A DNA stretch of 64,000 nt from a virus. Lineage: Duplodnaviria; Caudoviricetes. This document shows, one piece after another, positions 340 to 55,271 of this stretch. The notes beneath the pieces are model-generated. The model was not told where the DNA came from and made no database searches. It worked only from the letters and a program-made list of their open reading frames with translations. Position 1 is the first letter of the stretch. Every line of letters begins with the position of its first letter. The DNA is taken from IMG/VR virus record IMGVR_UViG_3300025011_000016, one strand, 5' to 3'. A program made the position numbers and the translations under genes.

Positions 340-1134
340 TATTATGAATTTCATTAACGAAGCAGATCGAGAAATCCATGTCTGCATATACAGTGATGTA
401 TATTAAAAAACTATTTTAATTGTCGGGGATCTCCTTAATGCTTTATTTAATAAAGATTGGACAATCCGCAGCCAAGATTCTATTTAATAGAATAAGGTTC
501 AACGACTATCGAAAGCTTTTAATTAAGTTAGTAGAGTAGATTACATATTGATGGTAATCGAAGTGGAGAGCTCCAATATTAAAATTAATTAATTTTAATA
601 TTGGATGAAGATATAGTCTAGTATCCTAATGTAAATTAGGGAAGTTCATAAGAGAACTGCATGTGAGTTATGACATATGTGAATATATCGTATGCCAAAA
701 CCCTAGTCATGGCAAATGCTAAGTTTGTCGGTCGAGTTATAACACATCAGGGATCATTTAATGGATCAGTTACTGAATTCTATAAGAAACTAATGGGATT
801 TGCAACTGAAATACCTGAGAATTTAATCGATGAATTTGAATATATATTTGCTGCACCGAAAACATTAACTAATACTAATCTAACTGATCTTATATCTAAT
901 GCTGAACAAACTGCTACATTTATTGTGAAATCATTAACTGGTGATAATTCATCCCCTAGTGATGATGATAACTTATTAAAAGATTTGTTATTTAATAAAA
1001 TCTCTAGAGAATTCCTACCAATGATTCCATGGAGTACTGCTGATACAATATTAGAGGAGTGTAAGATAGAATTGGAGAAGTTGAAAGCTGAAAAGAAAAT
1101 GACTACTCCTGAAGGTACTGAAGACGTACAATAA
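340..1134 (+). CDS. Portal protein, 3' exons (340..367 and 691..1134)
   Basis: Spliced reading IMNFINEAD|YAKTLVMANAKFVGRVITHQGSF aligns by eye with the T4 gp20-type C-terminal region (ELKFxKFIxxLQxxF). It sits directly beside the tube/sheath genes. Confidence 0.65.
368..690 (+). ncRNA. ORF-less group I intron (portal intron B, 323 nt)
   Basis: P1 exon GCAGAT pairs with IGS GTCTGC (U.G). Core motifs GGACAATCCGCAGCCAAG, GGTTCAACGACTA, GAAGATATAGTC. Omega-G at 690; frame restored. Confidence 0.9.
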
Positions 1135-7303: not shown

Positions 7304-10300
7304 TGAGTTCATCGAAGAAATCCAATGGTATACCTGTTTCTGATGACATATCATCATCAAAATTTTCAACATAATTTTTTGGTGGAATTAACATATCACT
7401 ATGCTTCATTTCCCTACGAGCTTTTTGGATTTCTTCAATTAATTTTATATTATAATCGTCTTGAGTTTTAACACCAACATCTTTAAAATATCCCTTGCTA
7501 TCATCCGAGAGTTCTTCATATAGTTCATCATATGTTAACCCTTTATTACGTTTTTCTTCGTCGGGTATATCTCCCCTGACAAAACCGAATCTATGAAGAT
7601 TATTTCCATGATAGAATACATATAGAACTATTAGATATGACATTATTGAATCGTCATGAAAAGAAGTCCCTGCAGCTATTTTACCAGTTTTAGTTTTAAC
7701 TAGTCGTAATAGATCATCAATAATATTACAGGTAACAAATTTATCTTTAAATTCATTCACATGTCGTTCAAGTAAACTCCTGTCGTGTTAGTAGTATTCG
7801 TTAGATACCACGATAACTTAACCGTTTAGGTTCTTTGAACCGTCCGACCAACGGCGAAATCTTTATTTACGTTAGTTAATAAAGATAGTTTAAATGTATT
7901 ATAAATATTAATAGCCGCATTGTTATCTCTATCATCTATATGTCCACATTGTGGGCAATTAAAGACTCTTTGAGATAACTTCATTTTAGTTTTAACTTTA
8001 TGATTACAAACAGAGCATGTAATGGTACTATTCGGTTCTGCTAAAATATATTCACTACCATAAAAACGACATTTATATTTTAACACCTGCGTAAACGTAA
8101 AGGCTCCAACTCTATGAATACCCCTATTAATACGCTTAATACCATCAGACTCTGTTAATAAATCTTTAAAACTAAATTCATCAACTACTACGTTTCTATA
8201 GGTCTTGGCTAAGAATGTAGATACCTTCTGAATATAATCCATTCTAATATTCACTATTTTGGCGTGAATATCATTAAGCTTGGTTCTCGCTTTTATATAG
8301 TTCTTTGATGGATTACGTTTATCATATTTCTTCTTAGAAACTATTTCCGAAAGCTTATCAGTTTTCTTCTCTAGTTTCTTAATCTTCCCTTTCGGAAATT
8401 TAGGATTTATGATATCTTTTCCATCAAAACAAACTACTGGATTATGTATCCCTAGGTCTATACCTATAGTATTTTTCTCATGGTTATGACTTGGATTATC
8501 TATTTCATATGTGAATGATACATAATATTTAAAATTCTCCATACTAATACTCATTGTTTTCATCTCATGATGATATAAGAAGCTTATATCTTCATATGTT
8601 TTTAATTCCATATGCCCATATTCTCTATTAATAATAAAAGAGAATTTATTTTTATCGAGAATCTTAACAGCAGCTTGCTTAATATATATTCTAAAAGAAC
8701 CATTTCCATGAATCTTTCTTTTGAAATGTAGTTTACATCGCTGCTTATTTTTAATATCTTTAAAGAACTTATTAACGGCTAAGTTAACATCACTAACCGT
8801 TTCATTTTTTATAGACTTATTATATTCTCCAGTCCATTCAAATCCAGGTTCCTTTTCTTTCTTAGAATATATATGAGTAATAAAATCAAATTTATCAAAG
8901 AACTTCCTTAAATCTTTATCTACAATATTACCATTAAATTCTAGGATCTTATTAAAATACTCTAAAGTATTATTATATACAAATCGTCTATAACCAAAGC
9001 ATTTGTTTAAATATGTTACTTGTTCTTTAGTTGGTCGTATTCTTGTTTTAAAAGTCTTAATCAATTTTTATTCACCTCCTTTCTTATATTATTTGTTAAA
9101 GGTATAATATAATTGTATTAGGAATGAATTAGTAAGACTTACGGTTAAGTTATTCTCTAAGTTTCCTTAAAGCACAGACTATATCTTCACCCATTATAAT
9201 AATAATTATAATGGGGCCACCCATTTCGATTTAAGGGATTCTCACCCACTCACTTGAGCCCTACTCCTTTACGGATAGTCGTTGAACCTAAATCTATAAA
9301 TAGATCATTGGCTGCAGATTGTCCAATCTTAAACATTGTTACTTTGTTGTAGTTTAAGCACTAAGGAGTTTCCCGCAATTAAAGTAGTTTCAATTACATA
9401 TTACTATGCAACGTGACTCATACATGAATCATAACTTCTCTGGACTTATCTCCGGTCCAAACACCATATAGTTTTCGTCTAGCTGATTCTAATTTTAACA
9501 TACCTTCTGAGTCAAGTTTATCATCAAGTCCGGATGAAACAAGATCTTTATCATTATCAAAGTATAAATTAGAGCGTATATCTGTTAATTTTAAAGAATC
9601 CATTATGGCTTCACCATTAAAATTACGTTCTATACATAATATAGACTTAGGGATATGATGTTTGATAAGAGTAGTTATAAATTTAATAGTCTGAACTACA
9701 CCTATATATGGTGATTTAAATTCAGCAACAGGTTTTATAGTATATGGGTCAAATACCGTAACGGCAGTATTATCTTTACCATAACCATTAGAGGTATCAA
9801 CTCCAACGAAGTATATCCTATCTTTCTTCAAGGGTTCATATATATCTAATTTAAATAGTTTATTTATAAATATTTCTTCCTTAATTGGCTTCTTCATTTC
9901 TTCAATAGTGGCCAAATCTTCTGCGGGGAAAGGAGATTCGGATGAACCCCTCATTCTTTGAAGGAAGACCTCTCTTTTAATCTTTACTGGATTATTCAGT
10001 AAGATCTGACAGATACTTTTAAACCATATTTCATCTTTACCAAGTTGTTGATATTGGTATTCAATATAGACGATTCCACTTTCAGAATTAATTGCAATAT
10101 ATTCATCTAAATCTTCTTTAGTCCAATCATAAAACTTTTCAGTCCAACGACAAGTTGTAGCGATAATCTTTAATGCGTCCTGACCTGCTGAAGTATCTAA
10201 ATCTCCCGTTTATATTCATATGAATCGTTAATTCATATAGTCCATACGGACATCCCTAAGTTTCTTTAGGATACTAGACTATATCTTCATCTCTTAATAA

Positions 10301-23854: not shown

Positions 23855-26676
23855 TTATGGTCTGGATTTAAAGAAAGAATCTATATAAGAAGCTTCTCTC
23901 TTTTTAAATGTTAATGGATTAATAAGTTGTCGTCCTAATGCCTGGAAGGATAAACCTATTAAGACAGAAGGATGTTTTTCTAATGCGGATTCAACAGTCA
24001 TTATTTGATACTCAGCTTTTTCACCATACTTACTGAAATCCGGTCTATATAAGATATCCTTACTGTGTCTTAATAGAGGGTGTATCAACAATTCACCATG
24101 AACCGCATCTGAATCAATTTTAGATTCGATTAATAGATCTAACATCTTTTGACATAACTCATCAACAGATCTACATCCAACATGATCACTTCTATTAAGT
24201 AAATACATGATGTTATAAAGAGGACGTGTCAATTCGTTATTCTCAATTTCTAATACGAATATCTTAGAATCATCATCAATTTTAGCAAAGTCAATTTCAT
24301 AAGCGTCTTTATGAGATTTACTCTTATTCATTAACTCAACTATATCTGGAGATATATATAAGTCTTTCTGATTCAATTCCATACATTCTATAATCTCACC
24401 AGATTTTTTATGTTTAACATGGAATATAGTTACAAATGTATTGAAATCAGTATCATCATATTCATTAATACTAATAATATTTTTATTAATAATAACTAAA
24501 GAATAATCATTTAAGTTAATGTCGTCATTAGTTATATTAAGAAGAATTTCATTTGCATTAATAGTGAAAAACTTATAGAAATCAGCATTGAATTCTATCT
24601 TTTCCGAAACTGTTGTTAGTAGGTGTTTAGTTGATAATACTCTCTGAGATACAGGTTCTGTTATTCTTGATCCAGCATATCCACCAATAGAGATACCTTT
24701 ATTGGTATGATATAGTTGCCCATAACAATGCCAACATATTCCATCTTTAGCTGAACAAGTTGCTGGAGATTTAACATAGATAGTTTTACCAACAATATTT
24801 TCCTCATGACCTTCAATGACGTTATAATCTCTAGTATTCTCAAGACGATAATATCTTCCCTGTAATCGTCTTAAATGCTCTTTAGTTTTGATTTCGTATT
24901 GAATTGAATGAATGCTATTACATGTTTTAACAGTAGGACTTAATTTTATTCCTGATGTTAAAAGCATTACTAATCGTGCAAACGTATTTTCATATAGATC
25001 GTAAATCCATACAGTTCTCTAATGAACTTCCCTATAACTATATAGGATACAAGACTATATCACCATCCAATGATGGATGATTCTTATTTCAGTTTAACTA
25101 TAAACTTACGAGCTTTTACTCTAGTCGTTGAACCTTTCTCTTAGTAAGAGTATTGGCTGCGGATCGTCCAATCTTCAATTAAGAAGTTCTAAGGAGTTCC
25201 CCGTCAATTAAAGAAATTTTCTCATTATATATTACTATATAATGCCACCTGTAATTGATGGCCAGATCTACCCATACGTAAGTTGACATTATTCGTTACA
25301 TAATGTAGTCCACAAAGAACTCCCTATATTTCTATAGGATACCAGACTATCTCTTCTCATTTAATTAAATGAGTCTCTCCATTTCGATTTAAGAGTTTTC
25401 ACACCCACTCACTTTGAGCTCTAAATTAGTCGTTGAACCTTTCTCTTATTATAAAGAGACTTGGCTGCGGATTATCCAATCTTAAACATTATTACATTAG
25501 TAGTTTAAGCAGTAAGGAACTTCCCGTCAATTAAAAGAGAAATGGCTAAAAATTAACCAGTTTATTCATAATTAATGATTTTCTTCCACCACGATACTTT
25601 CACATAGGTCGTTAATCCATGCAGTTCTCTTATGAACTTCCCTAATATTTATTAGGATACAAGACTATATCACAATCTTCTATATAGAAGATTCCATTAA
25701 TTTCGATATAACTTTATATCTACGAGTCACGCTCTAGTCGTTGAACCTTATTCTTATATAAGAATCTTGGCTGCGGATTGTCCAATCTTCAATTAGAAGT
25801 TCTAAGGAGTTTCCCGTCAATTAAAATAGTTTTACAACATAAGTCCACCTATGCCGCCCCAAGTTGTTTTAGGGAGTCAATATAGTAATTAGTGATGTTG
25901 GATAATCCCCCTACTATGAAGTTACTATTGATCGGATGGGGGATTGTATTTCCAGAAAGATCCGGCTTCAGCCCCCCACTAATTGCGAACTCTGCTAACT
26001 GTTTATGTTTAATCCCAGCACCAGATTTTAGTATTGGCTGTAGCATATTTCCAACAGGATCATTTTCTAAAATGGCAACTTGCTCATGCATTAGATCATC
26101 TAGTAATGATTCTATTTCCGTAGGTTGAAGTCCGTCTGGAATAACCGTTCGTATGATTTCGTTAAATCTAGGTATACGTTCGCTTACGTCAATAAACGTC
26201 TCAATATTAATTGATAACCCCAATATCATATTAAAGTCAGTTGATATTCTAGATAGATTGTGGATCATATCTGCAATTACTTTATTCATTTTAGTATTAC
26301 TGATAATCTTTCTAAATGGTAAAACTATCTTTCTATCAACATATGATTTGATATAATCTGCCGATATCTTACTACAATCAACTATATAAGATTCATTCAA
26401 TCTATCAATATAACCCAACTTCATCATCGGTGACCAAAACATATAATTTGTTAAGAAATGTCTTAATTGGAGAGTATGAATTTGTTCTCCTTCTTTATCT
26501 GAAAATTTAAAATACACTGGGCATGTTCTCAACTCCTTAACTTCAAACCCTCGTTTTAAATAATCATAGAACAACTCTAGATTAGCTTTGTAGTCCTTCT
26601 TAGTAGCCATTAAGTTTGAGATAATAAAGATCTTATTGGATAGCTCACTGATTATTTTTCCTACATCCGAATCCAA
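23855..26676 (-). CDS. Non-virion RNA polymerase beta' C-terminal subunit, four exons (26676..25871, 25591..25556, 25276..25258, 24982..23855), about 662 aa
   Basis: Spliced bridge helix YYIDSL|GGRKSLIMNKLV|MGRSGH|FARLVML; zinc motif CSAKDGICWHCYG; trigger loop AGSRITEPVSQRVLSTKH; region H IGLSFQALGRQL. Exon sum 1989 nt. Confidence 0.9.
24983..25257 (-). ncRNA. ORF-less group I intron (beta'C intron 3, 275 nt)
   Basis: P1 GCCAT/GTGGC; core motifs present; ends GAAAATACG. Confidence 0.9.
25277..25555 (-). ncRNA. ORF-less group I intron (beta'C intron 2, 279 nt)
   Basis: P1 TGGT/GCCA; core motifs present; ends CAACTTACG. Confidence 0.85.
25592..25870 (-). ncRNA. ORF-less group I intron (beta'C intron 1, 279 nt)
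   Basis: P1 CCCT/GGGG; core motifs present; ends GAAAGTATCG. Confidence 0.85.
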
Positions 26677-51212: not shown

Positions 51213-52020
51213 TACTAAAGAAACCCCATATGTGTAATCTCATACACATATGGGGTTTCTTTTATGTTTAAGCCAATAATGGTCATTTAAATTGTTAATA
51301 GATATTCTCATCTTAATGAAAATATGTATTAAATACCTAAAACACTTTTAACCATTTTTATTTGAGTAATATTAAAGTTTACTCAAATCCTCCGATAGTA
51401 TCGCCTTCTAAAATAATATCTTCGCCTTCATCCATAGAGGGCTACATATATTATAAGTAGATACGCGGGCAAACACACCATCAGTTTTCTATATCAAACT
51501 AAGAAACTAACATATTTTGTACATGATATAGAGCGTCAACAACTATGTTATATTTCCTTCTACACGTTCAGTAATTATGTCTTAAATATCAAATATTTAT
51601 CTACGTCTAAACAACTTTATATTACAATCTCTAAACTATATACCCTTCCTACTCAGTAAATTGAATAAATGATATTTATACGATTAGTATAGAGGTTAGA
51701 AACTCCACATATTAATTATAATATATGCAGCTTTTCACCACCTTCCCTAGTAAGAATTGTATAATACTTTAATTAAGTATCGTTACAAACTTAAGAGGGG
51801 CCTCACCACCTTTCTATATATAATATAGTAGGTTAGTGATAAGGGTTAATAATAAGGCTTTGCTATATAATCACCTTCATTTCTGTTAACTATTATTGTG
51901 GTGACACATTATAACCATCCTTTCTTATTTTATAATACTTATATTAGTATAATATATATTTTAATTATCTTAAAATACGATAATGAGATAGAGCTATGTT
52001 TTACACATAGCTCTATCTCA

Positions 52021-55000
52021 TTAATCATTTTCGAAACGTGTCATCATATATAGTGTATGAACACCCTCATTGGTTGTCTTTCTCATATTACTACCAGCGA
52101 TATTTAGAATATGAGCTTTAGATGTCATAATTTCAATAGCTTCTTTATTAGCTTCTTGACTAAATAAACCCTTTACTGTAACCTGATCCAAAATATTCAT
52201 ATAGATATTTAATCCATACAGTTCTCTTATGAACTTCCCTATATTAATATAGGATATTAGACTATCTCTTCAATAGAATAAATCTATTGTTTTCCCATTT
52301 CGATATATAACTATATCTACGAATTACTTCTAGTCGTTGAACCTTTCTCTTATATAAGAGACTTGGCTGCGGATTGTCCAATCTTCCATTAAAGAAGCTA
52401 TAAGGAGTTTCCCGACAGTTAAGGAAAATACGGCAATACAATGACCGTCGTACATGTAAACTCCATATTTTCATATGGCATGGACTATATCTTCACCGTA
52501 TAATAATAAATTATTAATTAGGTGTCCTGCACTTCCCAACTAACCCACAAATTAGTCAGTACACTACTAACTACTATATAATTATATGATAGTAATTTTC
52601 GTTAGTCTCTACATCTTCTCTAATTAATTTACATATTTTCACATATTGTAATTTTAACATGGGGGTTTTTATTTTGGGTGTATCATTTAGTTTAGACTCT
52701 ATTTTAATCAATATTTCATTACGGGAATTTTTATCACAATAGAATACAAAATATCCTTGAATAATACGTCCAAATCGAACCGCATGAGTTACAGAACTTT
52801 TATTACTATCTATTGAATCAGCAAATGACTTCGCTCCTTGGAATATATGAAATAACCCATCTTTAAATGCAATTATAGGTTTAGATTTATCTCGTTTAGT
52901 TTGTTCAGAATGTCTAAATAATTTTGTACTTTCACTCATCTTATATTTAGACTCACTATTCATAGTTCCACCGACCCCACCTGTTTTCTTATTATATCCA
53001 ATATTAGGATCATTTGCTTTTAAAGTTGATATCCAATATACCTCTTTTTCGTTCATTTCATTTTTAGAGGTGCATGTGTCTATTATACTGCAATCAAAAT
53101 TATTAAATCCATATTCATTAACTATTTTTATAATATGATATAAATTCGATTTCCTATTAAGCTTTTTATACTTATAATCCTTAAGTCGTGAATGTAGATT
53201 TATTGTCTGACCAATATAAATTTTACCATCTATATTATTTCTCAACATATATATTACACCAAAATGTTTTTTCGATTCAATTATTAGATCATCATTATAC
53301 ATAATAACCCCCCTTATTATATATAAGTTAGTATAAAAGTATTTTTTTACAATATATGAATTTCGTAAATCAATTAAAGCTTGACACGGTATTTCCAGCT
53401 ATCCATATTTCAGGACCTTAGGTTCTCTTACGAAGCTTATTCGTCAATGCTTATTTCACTTCTACCGTTAGCATGAGTATTGTGATACCCATACACCGCC
53501 TGTTAAGCGTTCACAGGATTTTTAACTAAGCTATTTCTAGCAAAGGGAGACAACAACTTTTATCTCCGTTTAAACCAGGTAGATATAAATTTGACATACT
53601 CACAGTATCTGCAAATAGAGTGGATATTTCTTCTTTAGGTAAACTAAGATCGATCCTAGGATAATTCGTATAGACTCTATTTCCAATAAACATCGGTATA
53701 GTTTGGTGGGTACTTAGGACTGATATTTTGTTAGGAAAGCTACTGAAATAATCTGAAATAGGATATCTCGTAACGAATACCATTTTATCTGATGTAACAT
53801 CAACTGCCGCTTGATATAAAATATCACACCAAGTTGCCTTCCTTTGTACTAAGGGAGATTCAGTTTCAGGAACCCCTGGTTTATAATCTTTTCCTATAAA
53901 TCGCATATATAATTTCTTCCCATCAGATCTAGGTTCCTCGACGGGAAGTTCAATTGGTGTAAATCTATCGGATACACTAAATATGAATCTATCAATTTGT
54001 TTTTTAAGATATTCTTCGTTGAAATATAATGAGGGATCTTTTAATTTCACATATCCCATGGAACCGTCCGGATTTCTTACAGGATACTTATTACCAACCT
54101 TCTCTAATTCTCTATGGAAGAAATTTTTAACCCAATTTATTATAAATGGTGTAAATAATGAACATGTTTGTGCAAGAGGAATACCAACATGATAAAAATC
54201 TATTTGCATCTCAGATGGTTTATTTGCTTTGAATATAGGTGCAGAAATTCGTTTATTCATATAGAATATAACTCTATACAGTTCTCTCATGAACTTCCCT
54301 AATTTTCATTAGGATACTAGACTATATCTTCAGGAAATTAAGAATTCCTGAACTCCCATTTCAATACAATAATGTATCTAACTCACGGTAAATTAATATA
54401 ACCATATTTCCGTGTGATAGTCGTTGAACCTTATTCTATTAGATAGAATCTTGGCTGCGGATTGTCCAAACTTAAACATTGTTACTTTAAGTGGTTTAAG
54501 TTCTAAGGAGATTCCCGACAATTAAGGAGCTACGTGCAGTAAATCCACACTCCTCGATCCGAAATCAACCGATTTACCCATTAAATTTTTTCTAATTAAT
54601 CCATTCTTCTTTTCTATTCTACCTTTGAGCAAATCATAAATTTCTACTAAGACTTCCTGAACCTTAGCCCTAGTTCCATTAAGTACAAAATCAAAATTAT
54701 TGGAGTTCCTCAACACAGTTGCGAATCTTAATAATTTAGCGTACTTATCATTGATCTCATGATGACTAATCTTACCCTGTGTTGCTGATTGTAAATTAAC
54801 ATCACGATAGAATGCTGGCACTACAATCCAGTACTCAGTAAATAAAGTATCTTTATCATACGATCTCAGCAAGTCAATTCTTTCACTACGTATAGAACTG
54901 GCATTCTTTTCAAAGTTTATTTTTTCCCAATTTTTATATAAGAATTCTAATCCAGTCTCACCAGATTCCTCAGCTTCAACCAATTGTCCATTTTTATCTA

Positions 55001-55271
55001 TTATAAAATTCTTTGATCCATATACAATAGATTGAAAATTTCTATTCATACGTTTTAATAACTTATAAACAAATGGGTGTAAGAAGTGCCCATTTAGTTT
55101 AATATAAGCATAAGTTTCTCGTCGTTCATTAACAGATACACCGAATATATTTGTAGATAGTAAACCACCAGATGTTGGTATACTACCTTTTTCAAATATT
55201 ATGATTTCAGTGATTTCTTGTAATGAATTAACTTGAATAAACTTCTTAATTGGTATTAAATCAATCTTCAT
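52021..55271 (-). CDS. Non-virion RNA polymerase beta' N-terminal (catalytic) subunit, four exons (55271..54547, 54249..53562, 52452..52444, 52188..52021), about 529 aa
   Basis: GLLSTNIFG, GLIRKNLMGKSVDFGSRSV|ISAP, TRYP, catalytic LNGD|YDG|DQVT. Exon sum 1590 nt. Confidence 0.9.
52189..52443 (-). ncRNA. ORF-less group I intron (beta'N intron 3, 255 nt)
   Basis: P1 ACGGT/GCCGT; core motifs present; ends GAATATTTTG. Confidence 0.9.
52453..53561 (-). mobile_element. Group I intron of a different sequence family, carrying a GIY-YIG endonuclease (beta'N intron 2, 1109 nt)
   Basis: P1 GGAGAT/GTCTCC (6 bp); P10 GTTGT with exon ACGAC; GACTA and GAAGATATAGTCC; lacks the family P3/P9 motifs. Confidence 0.85.
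52574..53302 (-). CDS. GIY-YIG homing endonuclease
   Basis: GVIYMLRNNIDGKIYIGQT...R, E and GYN motifs; NUMOD3-like RHSEQTK. Confidence 0.9.
   Translation of the reverse strand: MYNDDLIIESKKHFGVIYMLRNNIDGKIYIGQTINLHSRLKDYKYKKLNRKSNLYHIIKIVNEYGFNNFDCSIIDTCTSKNEMNEKEVYWISTLKANDPNIGYNKKTGGVGGTMNSESKYKMSESTKLFRHSEQTKRDKSKPIIAFKDGLFHIFQGAKSFADSIDSNKSSVTHAVRFGRIIQGYFVFYCDKNSRNEILIKIESKLNDTPKIKTPMLKLQYVKICKLIREDVETNENYYHIII
54250..54546 (-). ncRNA. ORF-less group I intron (beta'N intron 1, 297 nt)
   Basis: P1 GTGT/GCAC; core motifs present; ends GAATAAACG. Confidence 0.9.

Follow-up and report, generated by a model that had tools for sequence, protein, structure and literature searches.

In the present study, we analysed a 64,000-nucleotide (nt) stretch of DNA from a virus (Duplodnaviria; Caudoviricetes; IMG/VR record IMGVR_UViG_3300025011_000016), which is called the window here at its full length, and we describe a gene on its minus strand for the beta'-N subunit of a virion RNA polymerase (RNAP). 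The DNA of its catalytic motif, DxDGD, is interrupted twice by group I introns, and the two introns are separated by an exon of only 9 nt. Altogether the gene is made of four exons and three group I introns, designated A, B and C. Exon 1 (54547..55271) ends in ...GSRSV (AGT GT|) and was defined from the list of open reading frames (ORFs), from a reading of the junction and from alignment with BpSp gp212 and AR9 g145. Exon 2 (53562..54249) ends in ...LYLPGLNGD; its 3' end on the minus strand is ...CTA CCT GGT TTA AAC GGA GAT at 53562, and this last GAT is the codon of the first catalytic aspartate. Exon 3 (52444..52452), TACGACGGT, encodes Tyr-Asp-Gly and brings the second catalytic Asp. Exon 4 (52021..52188) encodes DQVTVKGLFSQEANKEA...FEND and a stop codon; it opens at 52188 with GAT CAG GTT ACA..., where the first GAT specifies the third catalytic Asp, and the frame is open to the stop at 52021. 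When the four exons are joined, they form an in-frame coding sequence of 1590 nt for 529 amino acids, reading ...LNGDYDGDQVTVKGLFSQEANKEA..., with the motif ...LYLPGLNGD-YDG-DQVTVKGLFSQEANKEA.... Because the joined exons read LNGD|YDG|DQV, each aspartate of DxDGD lies on a separate exon. In the spliced translation, GDYDGD is formed by splicing and a GxxxDxxxRSV-type motif, LMGKSVDFGSRSVISAP, spans intron A. No junction can be moved by a single base, since the bases flanking it differ, and the nine positions of exon 3 are contiguous with exon 2 in one relative (L004) and with exon 4 in another (L025).

An earlier reading of this DNA (the original prediction) had placed the three catalytic Asp codons on three exons and had proposed a 9-nt exon between two group I introns. 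Both proposals were borne out by the joined exons, with TACGACGGT located at 52452..52444 between introns B and C. The same reading held that the list of ORFs misses exons 3 and 4 completely; this was roughly right, as exon 3 is in no listed ORF and exon 4 is contained only in an ORF of 59 amino acids that starts inside intron C and falls under the default cut of 60. Since exon 3 has only 9 nt, the catalytic centre is invisible to ORF-based annotation, which is thus blind to the core of an essential phage enzyme, and jumbo-phage RNAP genes in metagenomes should be expected to be frequently mis-called as fragments.

The identity of the gene was examined by protein comparison. The spliced protein aligned with the intronless BpSp gp212 at 39% identity over 528 amino acids (E 3e-120), unbroken at all junctions, and gp212 reads ...LGGDYDGDTVSLRGVFSLEANKEA... 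at the corresponding segment. All tblastn matches of exon 2 were beta'-like subunits of RNAP from jumbo phages of the AR9/PBS1 type, namely BpSp, Goe21, Listeria LPJP1, Staphylococcus jumbo phages and phiR1-37. In AR9 itself the sole match was g145 (38% identity, E 2.5e-53), which is annotated as the virion RNAP beta'-N subunit and is joined from three pieces. In addition, PHROG 2986 (RNA polymerase beta subunit) matched close relatives of the protein (P0005 and P0006). Pfam gave no RNAP domain in the exon ORFs, megablast of the region gave no match among 50,697 phage records, and no relative was retrieved from IMG/VR when exon 2 served as a protein pattern. Judged from these alignments, the gene is taken as the virion-RNAP beta'-N gene, orthologous to AR9 g145 and BpSp gp212, of a groundwater jumbo phage that is uncultured and resembles AR9/PBS1. 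AR9 gp145 is a subunit of the virion RNAP, whose subunits are all late-gene products, and the virion enzyme transcribes the early genes (PMC5312081). By analogy with AR9, the subunit described here is presumably also expressed late and packaged into the virion (PMC5312081).

Membership in group I was tested with the Rfam covariance model RF00028 at its gathering score of 50. Intron A (54250..54546, minus strand; 297 nt) is an ORF-less group I intron inserted at RSV|ISAP, which scored 65.7 bits, starts after U and ends in G; its site is occupied in the relative L004 and empty in the relatives P0005 and P0007. Intron C (52189..52443, minus strand; 255 nt) is likewise ORF-less and scored 69.8 bits over the full model (1-253). 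Its first bases are CAUUGUAUUGCCGU and its last bases ...AUAUUUUG (ending ...UUUUG), and the P1 helix of RF00028 starts exactly at the micro-exon. A U.G pair is present at the 5' splice site, where ACGGU| pairs with the guide GCCGU (intron nt 10-14; 52434..52430), and the terminal G is at 52189. Compared with four ORF-less introns of the window and with the introns at the same site (site C) in the relatives L004 and L020, intron C showed 62-74% identity, and two further siblings in the window were 57-71% identical. Overall, C-type ORF-less introns with a common core and 3' tail occur in at least six copies within the 64 kb, at 57-75% identity. By this resemblance, intron C is assigned to a family of ORF-less introns that appears to have multiplied within this genome.

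When contig depth in the source metagenome was summed over the cores of introns C and A (52134..52484 and 54240..54590), it reached about 10-15 times the value of the adjacent phage sequence, and these cores are places where contigs break. This excess suggests that this phage or its neighbours harbour a dozen or more related introns. Further group I introns were found in the window at 9155..9437 (minus strand; RF00028 83.9 bits) and 358..641 (plus strand; 64.1 bits), and with intron B included the window holds at least eight.

Intron B (52453..53561, minus strand; 1109 nt) is a group I intron with a homing endonuclease gene. It begins with AAAAGUUGUUGUCUCC and finishes with ...UUUACAUG (ending ...ACAUG, the terminal G at 52453). 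Its recognisable elements include a P10 guide, GUUGU (53557..53553), and a P1 strand, GUCUCC (53551..53546; intron nt 11-16), which pairs with GGAGAU| and leaves a U.G pair at the 5' splice site, as well as the J8/7-P7' segment GAAGAUAUAGUCC (52494..52482). The 3' half (P7, P3', P8, J8/7 and P9) matched RF00028 with 26.7 bits (E 2.5e-5), a value that is below the gathering score of 50 and was obtained with the model interrupted by the 729-nt ORF. Homologues were then sought with a 22-base core pattern, which gave 17 loci in viral and metagenome contigs. Thirteen distinct homologues could be aligned with the invariant blocks CUGUGAACGC.UAACA.GCGGUGU, GCUAACGGU, CUAAGAGA and AAUACCGUG. Among these 13, compensatory changes on both sides were seen in 11 of the 21 predicted pairs of the 5' half, and the stems of the 3' half covary among the window, L025 and the ORF-less intron of L020. 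Because of these invariant blocks and compensatory pairs, intron B is regarded as a real and conserved RNA of the ribozyme type.

The ORF inside intron B (52574..53302, minus strand) lies in the sense orientation, is preceded by AAGGGGGG and encodes 242 amino acids, which match the GIY-YIG domain PF01541 with 45.8 bits (cut-off 22.6) and PHROG homing endonuclease families down to 1e-24. The VIY...YIG sequence and the Arg, Glu and Asn positions are visible in its translation, and endonuclease activity may be expected from these matches. Alignment with the ORF-less L020 and the ORF-bearing L025 showed that the 3' end of the ORF overlaps the conserved GAGACUA, the 5' strand of P7. An AR9-type early promoter motif was absent in front of the ORF; overall, 43 matches to this motif were counted versus about 29 expected.

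The insertion site of the B family proved to be highly constant. Its introns always follow a (G/A)-Asp codon pair, in all of about 12 distinct genes (LNGD, LGGD, MGGD, MGAD, LGAD, LNAD, LAAD and MNGD), and where the downstream exon is readable, the site is the first Asp of DxDGD. A complete phage genome of 288 kb (G004) carries a B-family intron in both of its beta' paralogues, at MNGD| and LAAD|. Taken together, the family of intron B is widespread, with the GIY-YIG gene or having lost it, and specialised on one codon boundary of DxDGD. Homologous loci were noted in very different phages (L015, L022, L023/L033, L024, L027, L029, L030, L031 and L032), all in beta'-like genes. One of these, a 65-kb viral contig, has four Rfam-positive introns and one B-family intron within 2.8 kb (L024:326..3098), apparently in a single beta'-like gene (LNAD|FDGD), and this array is denser than that of the window.

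The strongest evidence for the junctions was obtained from metagenomic relatives of the protein (52-68% identity), which were compared at the DNA level. L011 has no intron at the motif and reads GGT GGA GAC TAT GAT GGC GAC CAA. In L004, a 250-kb contig which also has intron A, only C is present: GGA GAC TAC GAT GGT is followed by the intron (Rfam 76.4 bits) and GAT CAA. In both L011 and L004, GGA GAC TAY GAT GGN is uninterrupted at site B. L025 carries only B, with its ORF, as GGC GGA GAT, the intron (...UCUAG) and TAC GAC GGA GAT CAG. L031, a 259-kb contig, also has only B, at a site shifted by 1 nt (GAT T, intron, AT GAT GGT GAC CAA), and L010 has B starting at GGAGAT, with the contig end inside the intron. 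Finally, the 95-kb contig L020 combines an ORF-less B, the exon TATGATGGT and a C intron of 76 bits. Whichever of the four combinations is present (none, C, B, or B and C), the spliced products of the relatives all read GLGGDYDGDQV. Four natural kinds of allele thus restore GGDYDGDQ at exactly these positions, and the junctions are not a matter of chance. Furthermore, another motif position is occupied by an intron in AR9, which brings the insertion points within 9 bp of the motif to at least three across the relatives (GD|Y; YD|G in AR9; DG|D).

Occupancy outside the motif was also variable. At L008:7240 and L009:7221 (P0007 and P0005) there is no intron A, and an intron follows RYP..DYFG instead, close to the first AR9 site (after RYPIEQY), which is empty in the window. 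The intron occupancy of the beta'-N gene differed in every relative that was examined.

The nine bases of exon 3 are claimed by two different ribozymes. P10 of intron B is formed between GUUGU (intron nt 5-9; 53557..53553) and ACGAC, exon nt 2-6, and P1 of intron C between GCCGU (52434..52430) and ACGGU, exon nt 5-9, with two additional pairs internal to the intron. These two helices overlap on exon nt 5-6, as the original prediction had stated, and all exon bases except the first are taken by the guides. The P10 part is also supported by comparison, in which the guide covaries with the exon: UCGUG/UACGA in L025, AUCAUG/UAUGAU in L020 and CAUUAAG/UUUGAUG in L024; in L031, AUCAU pairs with AUGAU when the sequences are read by eye. 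The register of P10 is constant in the homologues: exon nt 1 faces the base adjoining P1. The guide follows the codon usage. The calculated energy of the local P1(C) hairpin was -6.0 kcal/mol; as duplexes, P1(C) and P10(B) gave -6.6 and -4.4 kcal/mol, respectively.

We consider it highly probable that two unrelated introns 9 bp apart in the DNA of DxDGD represent an accumulation of selfish elements at a place where imprecise loss is lethal, rather than a regulatory device. The anatomy of the gene, the exon junctions, the family membership of the introns and the allele series were all observed directly. Persistence of homing elements at active sites is usually explained by the lethality of imprecise loss there (PMC12908238), and the arrangement of B and C is facultative, as expected for selfish elements, because close relatives carry none, one or both. 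According to this model, three group I introns would have colonised the beta'-N gene, and B and C would have landed 9 bp apart in the DNA for the Mg-binding loop. A translatable mRNA would arise only once both ribozymes have excised, and the nine exon bases would serve twice, as the 3'-exon partner (P10) of B and as the 5'-exon partner (P1) of C. Since two bases are shared, P10(B) and P1(C) could not both be fully formed at once; simultaneous reaction of two ribozyme cores docking on one 9-nt segment seems unlikely, and splicing is probably stepwise. If C reacted first, exon 3 would be joined to exon 4 and P10(B) would be free to form; if B reacted first, exon 3 would be joined to exon 2 and P1(C) would stay intact. 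We would guess that C is often the first to leave, because it is small, lacks an ORF and forms P1 as a local hairpin, whereas B has 1.1 kb and an ORF that is translated. Self-splicing and its order are predicted from the DNA.

Several points weigh against this explanation. The 5' half of intron B alone had no Rfam match up to E = 10, and its P3-P6 region could be laid out only incompletely. Searches of sequencing runs gave no RNA run that carries this stretch, and three metatranscriptomes of the same study contain next to none of its sequence words. Intron C is 67-70% identical to the site-C introns of L004 and L020 and 72-74% identical to its genomic siblings; because it is no closer to the former than to the latter, site C may have been either inherited or re-invaded. 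The layout of B, a 9-nt exon (TATGATGGT) and C is found a second time in a related phage (L020:3535..3909), and L021 and L028 are the same. There the exon is preceded by an A (...GGUAAAAUA|UAUGAUGGU), versus the near-universal terminal G, and no shift of both splice sites gave a terminal G to this B-like intron. This second case may therefore splice oddly or not at all. Selection for the pair might be suggested by the recurrence of B and C in two lineages. A terminal G is apparently also missing in L015 (...CAAAUAA|CGAUGGAGAU).

The recurrence of the pair leads to another explanation, which we regard as possible but rather doubtful: that B and C form a composite unit of mobility and immunity. 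Because the two introns are 9 bp apart, the ORF-less C could hitch-hike by co-conversion on the GIY-YIG endonuclease of B, and the pair would destroy all homing sites of the motif (that of B, the AR9-type DYD|GD and that of C), so that the phage is immune to the endonucleases of co-infecting relatives and selection keeps the pair. The three or more insertion points within 9 bp, the finding of B and C in two lineages (in one of them without the ORF) and the B-family introns in both beta' paralogues of the complete genome are consistent with such a unit. In addition, the endonuclease of an intron in the RNAP gene of phiPA3 gives a competitive advantage against phiKZ, according to PMC11620839 as cited in PMC11878797. 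However, cleavage, target site and co-conversion are all putative here, the ORF-less B of L020 implies that the endonuclease is dispensable for persistence, and a crowded hot spot that came to hold both introns by chance would account for the data just as well. We think it unlikely that B and C behave as one selected unit that confers immunity in mixed infections, a reading on which the module of B, 9 nt and C recurs in L020.

The original prediction had gone further and had proposed that the overlap of P10 and P1 forces ordered splicing, that skipping of exon 3 yields a dead polymerase and that the two-intron unit may thereby act as a timing switch for late transcription. This is very improbable. 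The overlap on exon nt 5-6 is real, but it only disfavours simultaneous helices, and whichever intron leaves first, the pairing of the other is spared. Placozoan cox1 has a 1-nt exon flanked by two group I introns, and RNA intermediates recovered there represent both splicing orders (PMC5436844). Skipping of exon 3 would indeed be in frame, as predicted, giving GD|DQ with the loss of one catalytic Asp, and exon skipping at group I introns has been reported in phages, in Twort and in SIOphi (PMC3073962 and PMC11878797, respectively). The three Twort introns are described there as similar (PMC3073962), whereas B and C belong to different families, and a hybrid ribozyme is unlikely for this reason. 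We found no report in the literature of phage exon skipping between unrelated introns. Moreover, exon 4 offers the guide of B no real pairing partner (-1.4 kcal/mol, versus -4.4 with exon 3), so skipping as an outcome found no support. The occurrence of B and C in two lineages would agree with a switch, but relatives at 63-68% protein identity are without B, C or both. Finally, the gene encodes a subunit of the packaged, early (virion) polymerase, itself a late gene in AR9 and without a role in late transcription; the introns are optional in relatives, and evidence of a programmed product is absent.

An artefact of mis-joined repeated intron cores, or a dead gene with a non-splicing B, is scarcely credible: the cores are repeated at the depth given above, contigs break at them and the 5' half of B escapes Rfam, but single contigs from two samples (including L013) cover the micro-exon together with parts of the two introns beside it, with zero differences, this layout is found independently in L020, every one of the four exons is open and conserved as far as the stop codon, and the core elements, P1 and P10 of B are intact and covary across homologues. 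The contigs of the two samples agree without differences over 52357..54318, which argues against an assembly artefact. In the contigs of four DNA runs, apparent joints (e.g. 52361 to 54256) were considered as deletions and rejected, as they reflect cross-matching of introns A and C, which are siblings. The contigs of these runs showed no intron-less variant of this phage, and contigs cannot prove absence.

Two other features of the window were noted. At 24983..25870 (minus strand), three tandem sibling ORF-less group I introns (279, 279 and 275 nt; Rfam 67.8-69.1 bits) lie in another beta'-like gene, where they split the bridge-helix segment DSL|GGRKSLIMNKLV|MGRSGH|FARLV and leave exons of 36 and 19 nt. 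Hybrid folding with exon skipping seems likelier in this array than at the 9-nt exon, given the close relationship of the three introns. At the end of the beta'-N gene there is a long perfect hairpin, an inverted repeat GAGATAGAGCTATGT...ACATAGCTCTATCTC (51979..52026; 5' arm at about 52020..52006), which overlaps the last 6 bases of exon 4 and straddles the stop codon (52023..52021). Rfam gave only a weak and false microRNA match to it, on both strands, and it is probably a bidirectional transcription terminator of the beta'-N gene.

The closest known system is the orthologous gene g145 of AR9. The original prediction had stated that RNAP genes of AR9 contain introns, and the AR9 record agrees for this gene: g145 has two group I introns with the endonuclease genes g147 and g146, and one of them, together with its homing endonuclease gene, interrupts this very motif of the catalytic centre. 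In contrast to the present gene, AR9 has a single motif intron, at DYD|GD (GAC TAC GAT | GGT GAT), which falls between the two sites of the window, 6 nt after site B and 3 nt before site C, and there is no micro-exon. Its endonuclease is annotated as Hef-like, whereas that of intron B is GIY-YIG. The other AR9 intron (after RYPIEQY) is not in the window gene, and intron A of the window is not in AR9.

Introns in RNAP genes of jumbo phages were already known, from the AR9 record, a preprint on MarsHill and phiPA3 (PMC11878797). In phiPA3, a mobile group I intron with the HNH endonuclease gp210 likewise resides in a jumbo-phage RNAP gene, with a possible benefit against intron-less competitors; that case (PMC11620839) differs in having a single intron, an HNH nickase, a Pseudomonas phage and no micro-exon. 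Tandem phage introns with short exons and skipping, and organelle mini-exons between group I introns, are also already known. Thus, several close group I introns in one essential phage gene occur in Twort orf142 (Landthaler & Shub 1999, as cited in PMC3073962 and PMC11878797), in rNDPL of phiNIT1 and in TerL of SIOphi, and cDNA of phiNIT1 revealed a small exon flanked by two introns (PMC11878797). Twort differs in its three introns, which are described as similar, versus the unrelated families of B and C, and the present case is marked by an exon of only 9 nt, of which nt 2-9 are taken by guides, and by an RNA polymerase as the host gene. In the limited library consulted, no micro-exon in a phage RNAP gene and no phage exon as short as this one was found.

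The mini- and micro-exons of mitochondria (fungal genes, MFannot, PMC10352661; placozoan cox1, PMC5436844) are alike in having fewer than about four codons, two independent group I introns and conserved residues, and in being missed by ORF annotation. They differ in that they belong to organelles and to other intron subgroups, and the placozoan case was seen in RNA, while that of the window is read from DNA alone. The general picture of phage introns is unchanged by the present gene, which is an extreme case in a compact form. The specialisation of the B family, its presence in both RNAP paralogues and the three or more insertion points within 9 bp look like an arms race between homing elements over an active site, and the allele series (none, B, C, and B with C) offers ready-made controls for a model of crowded group I splicing.

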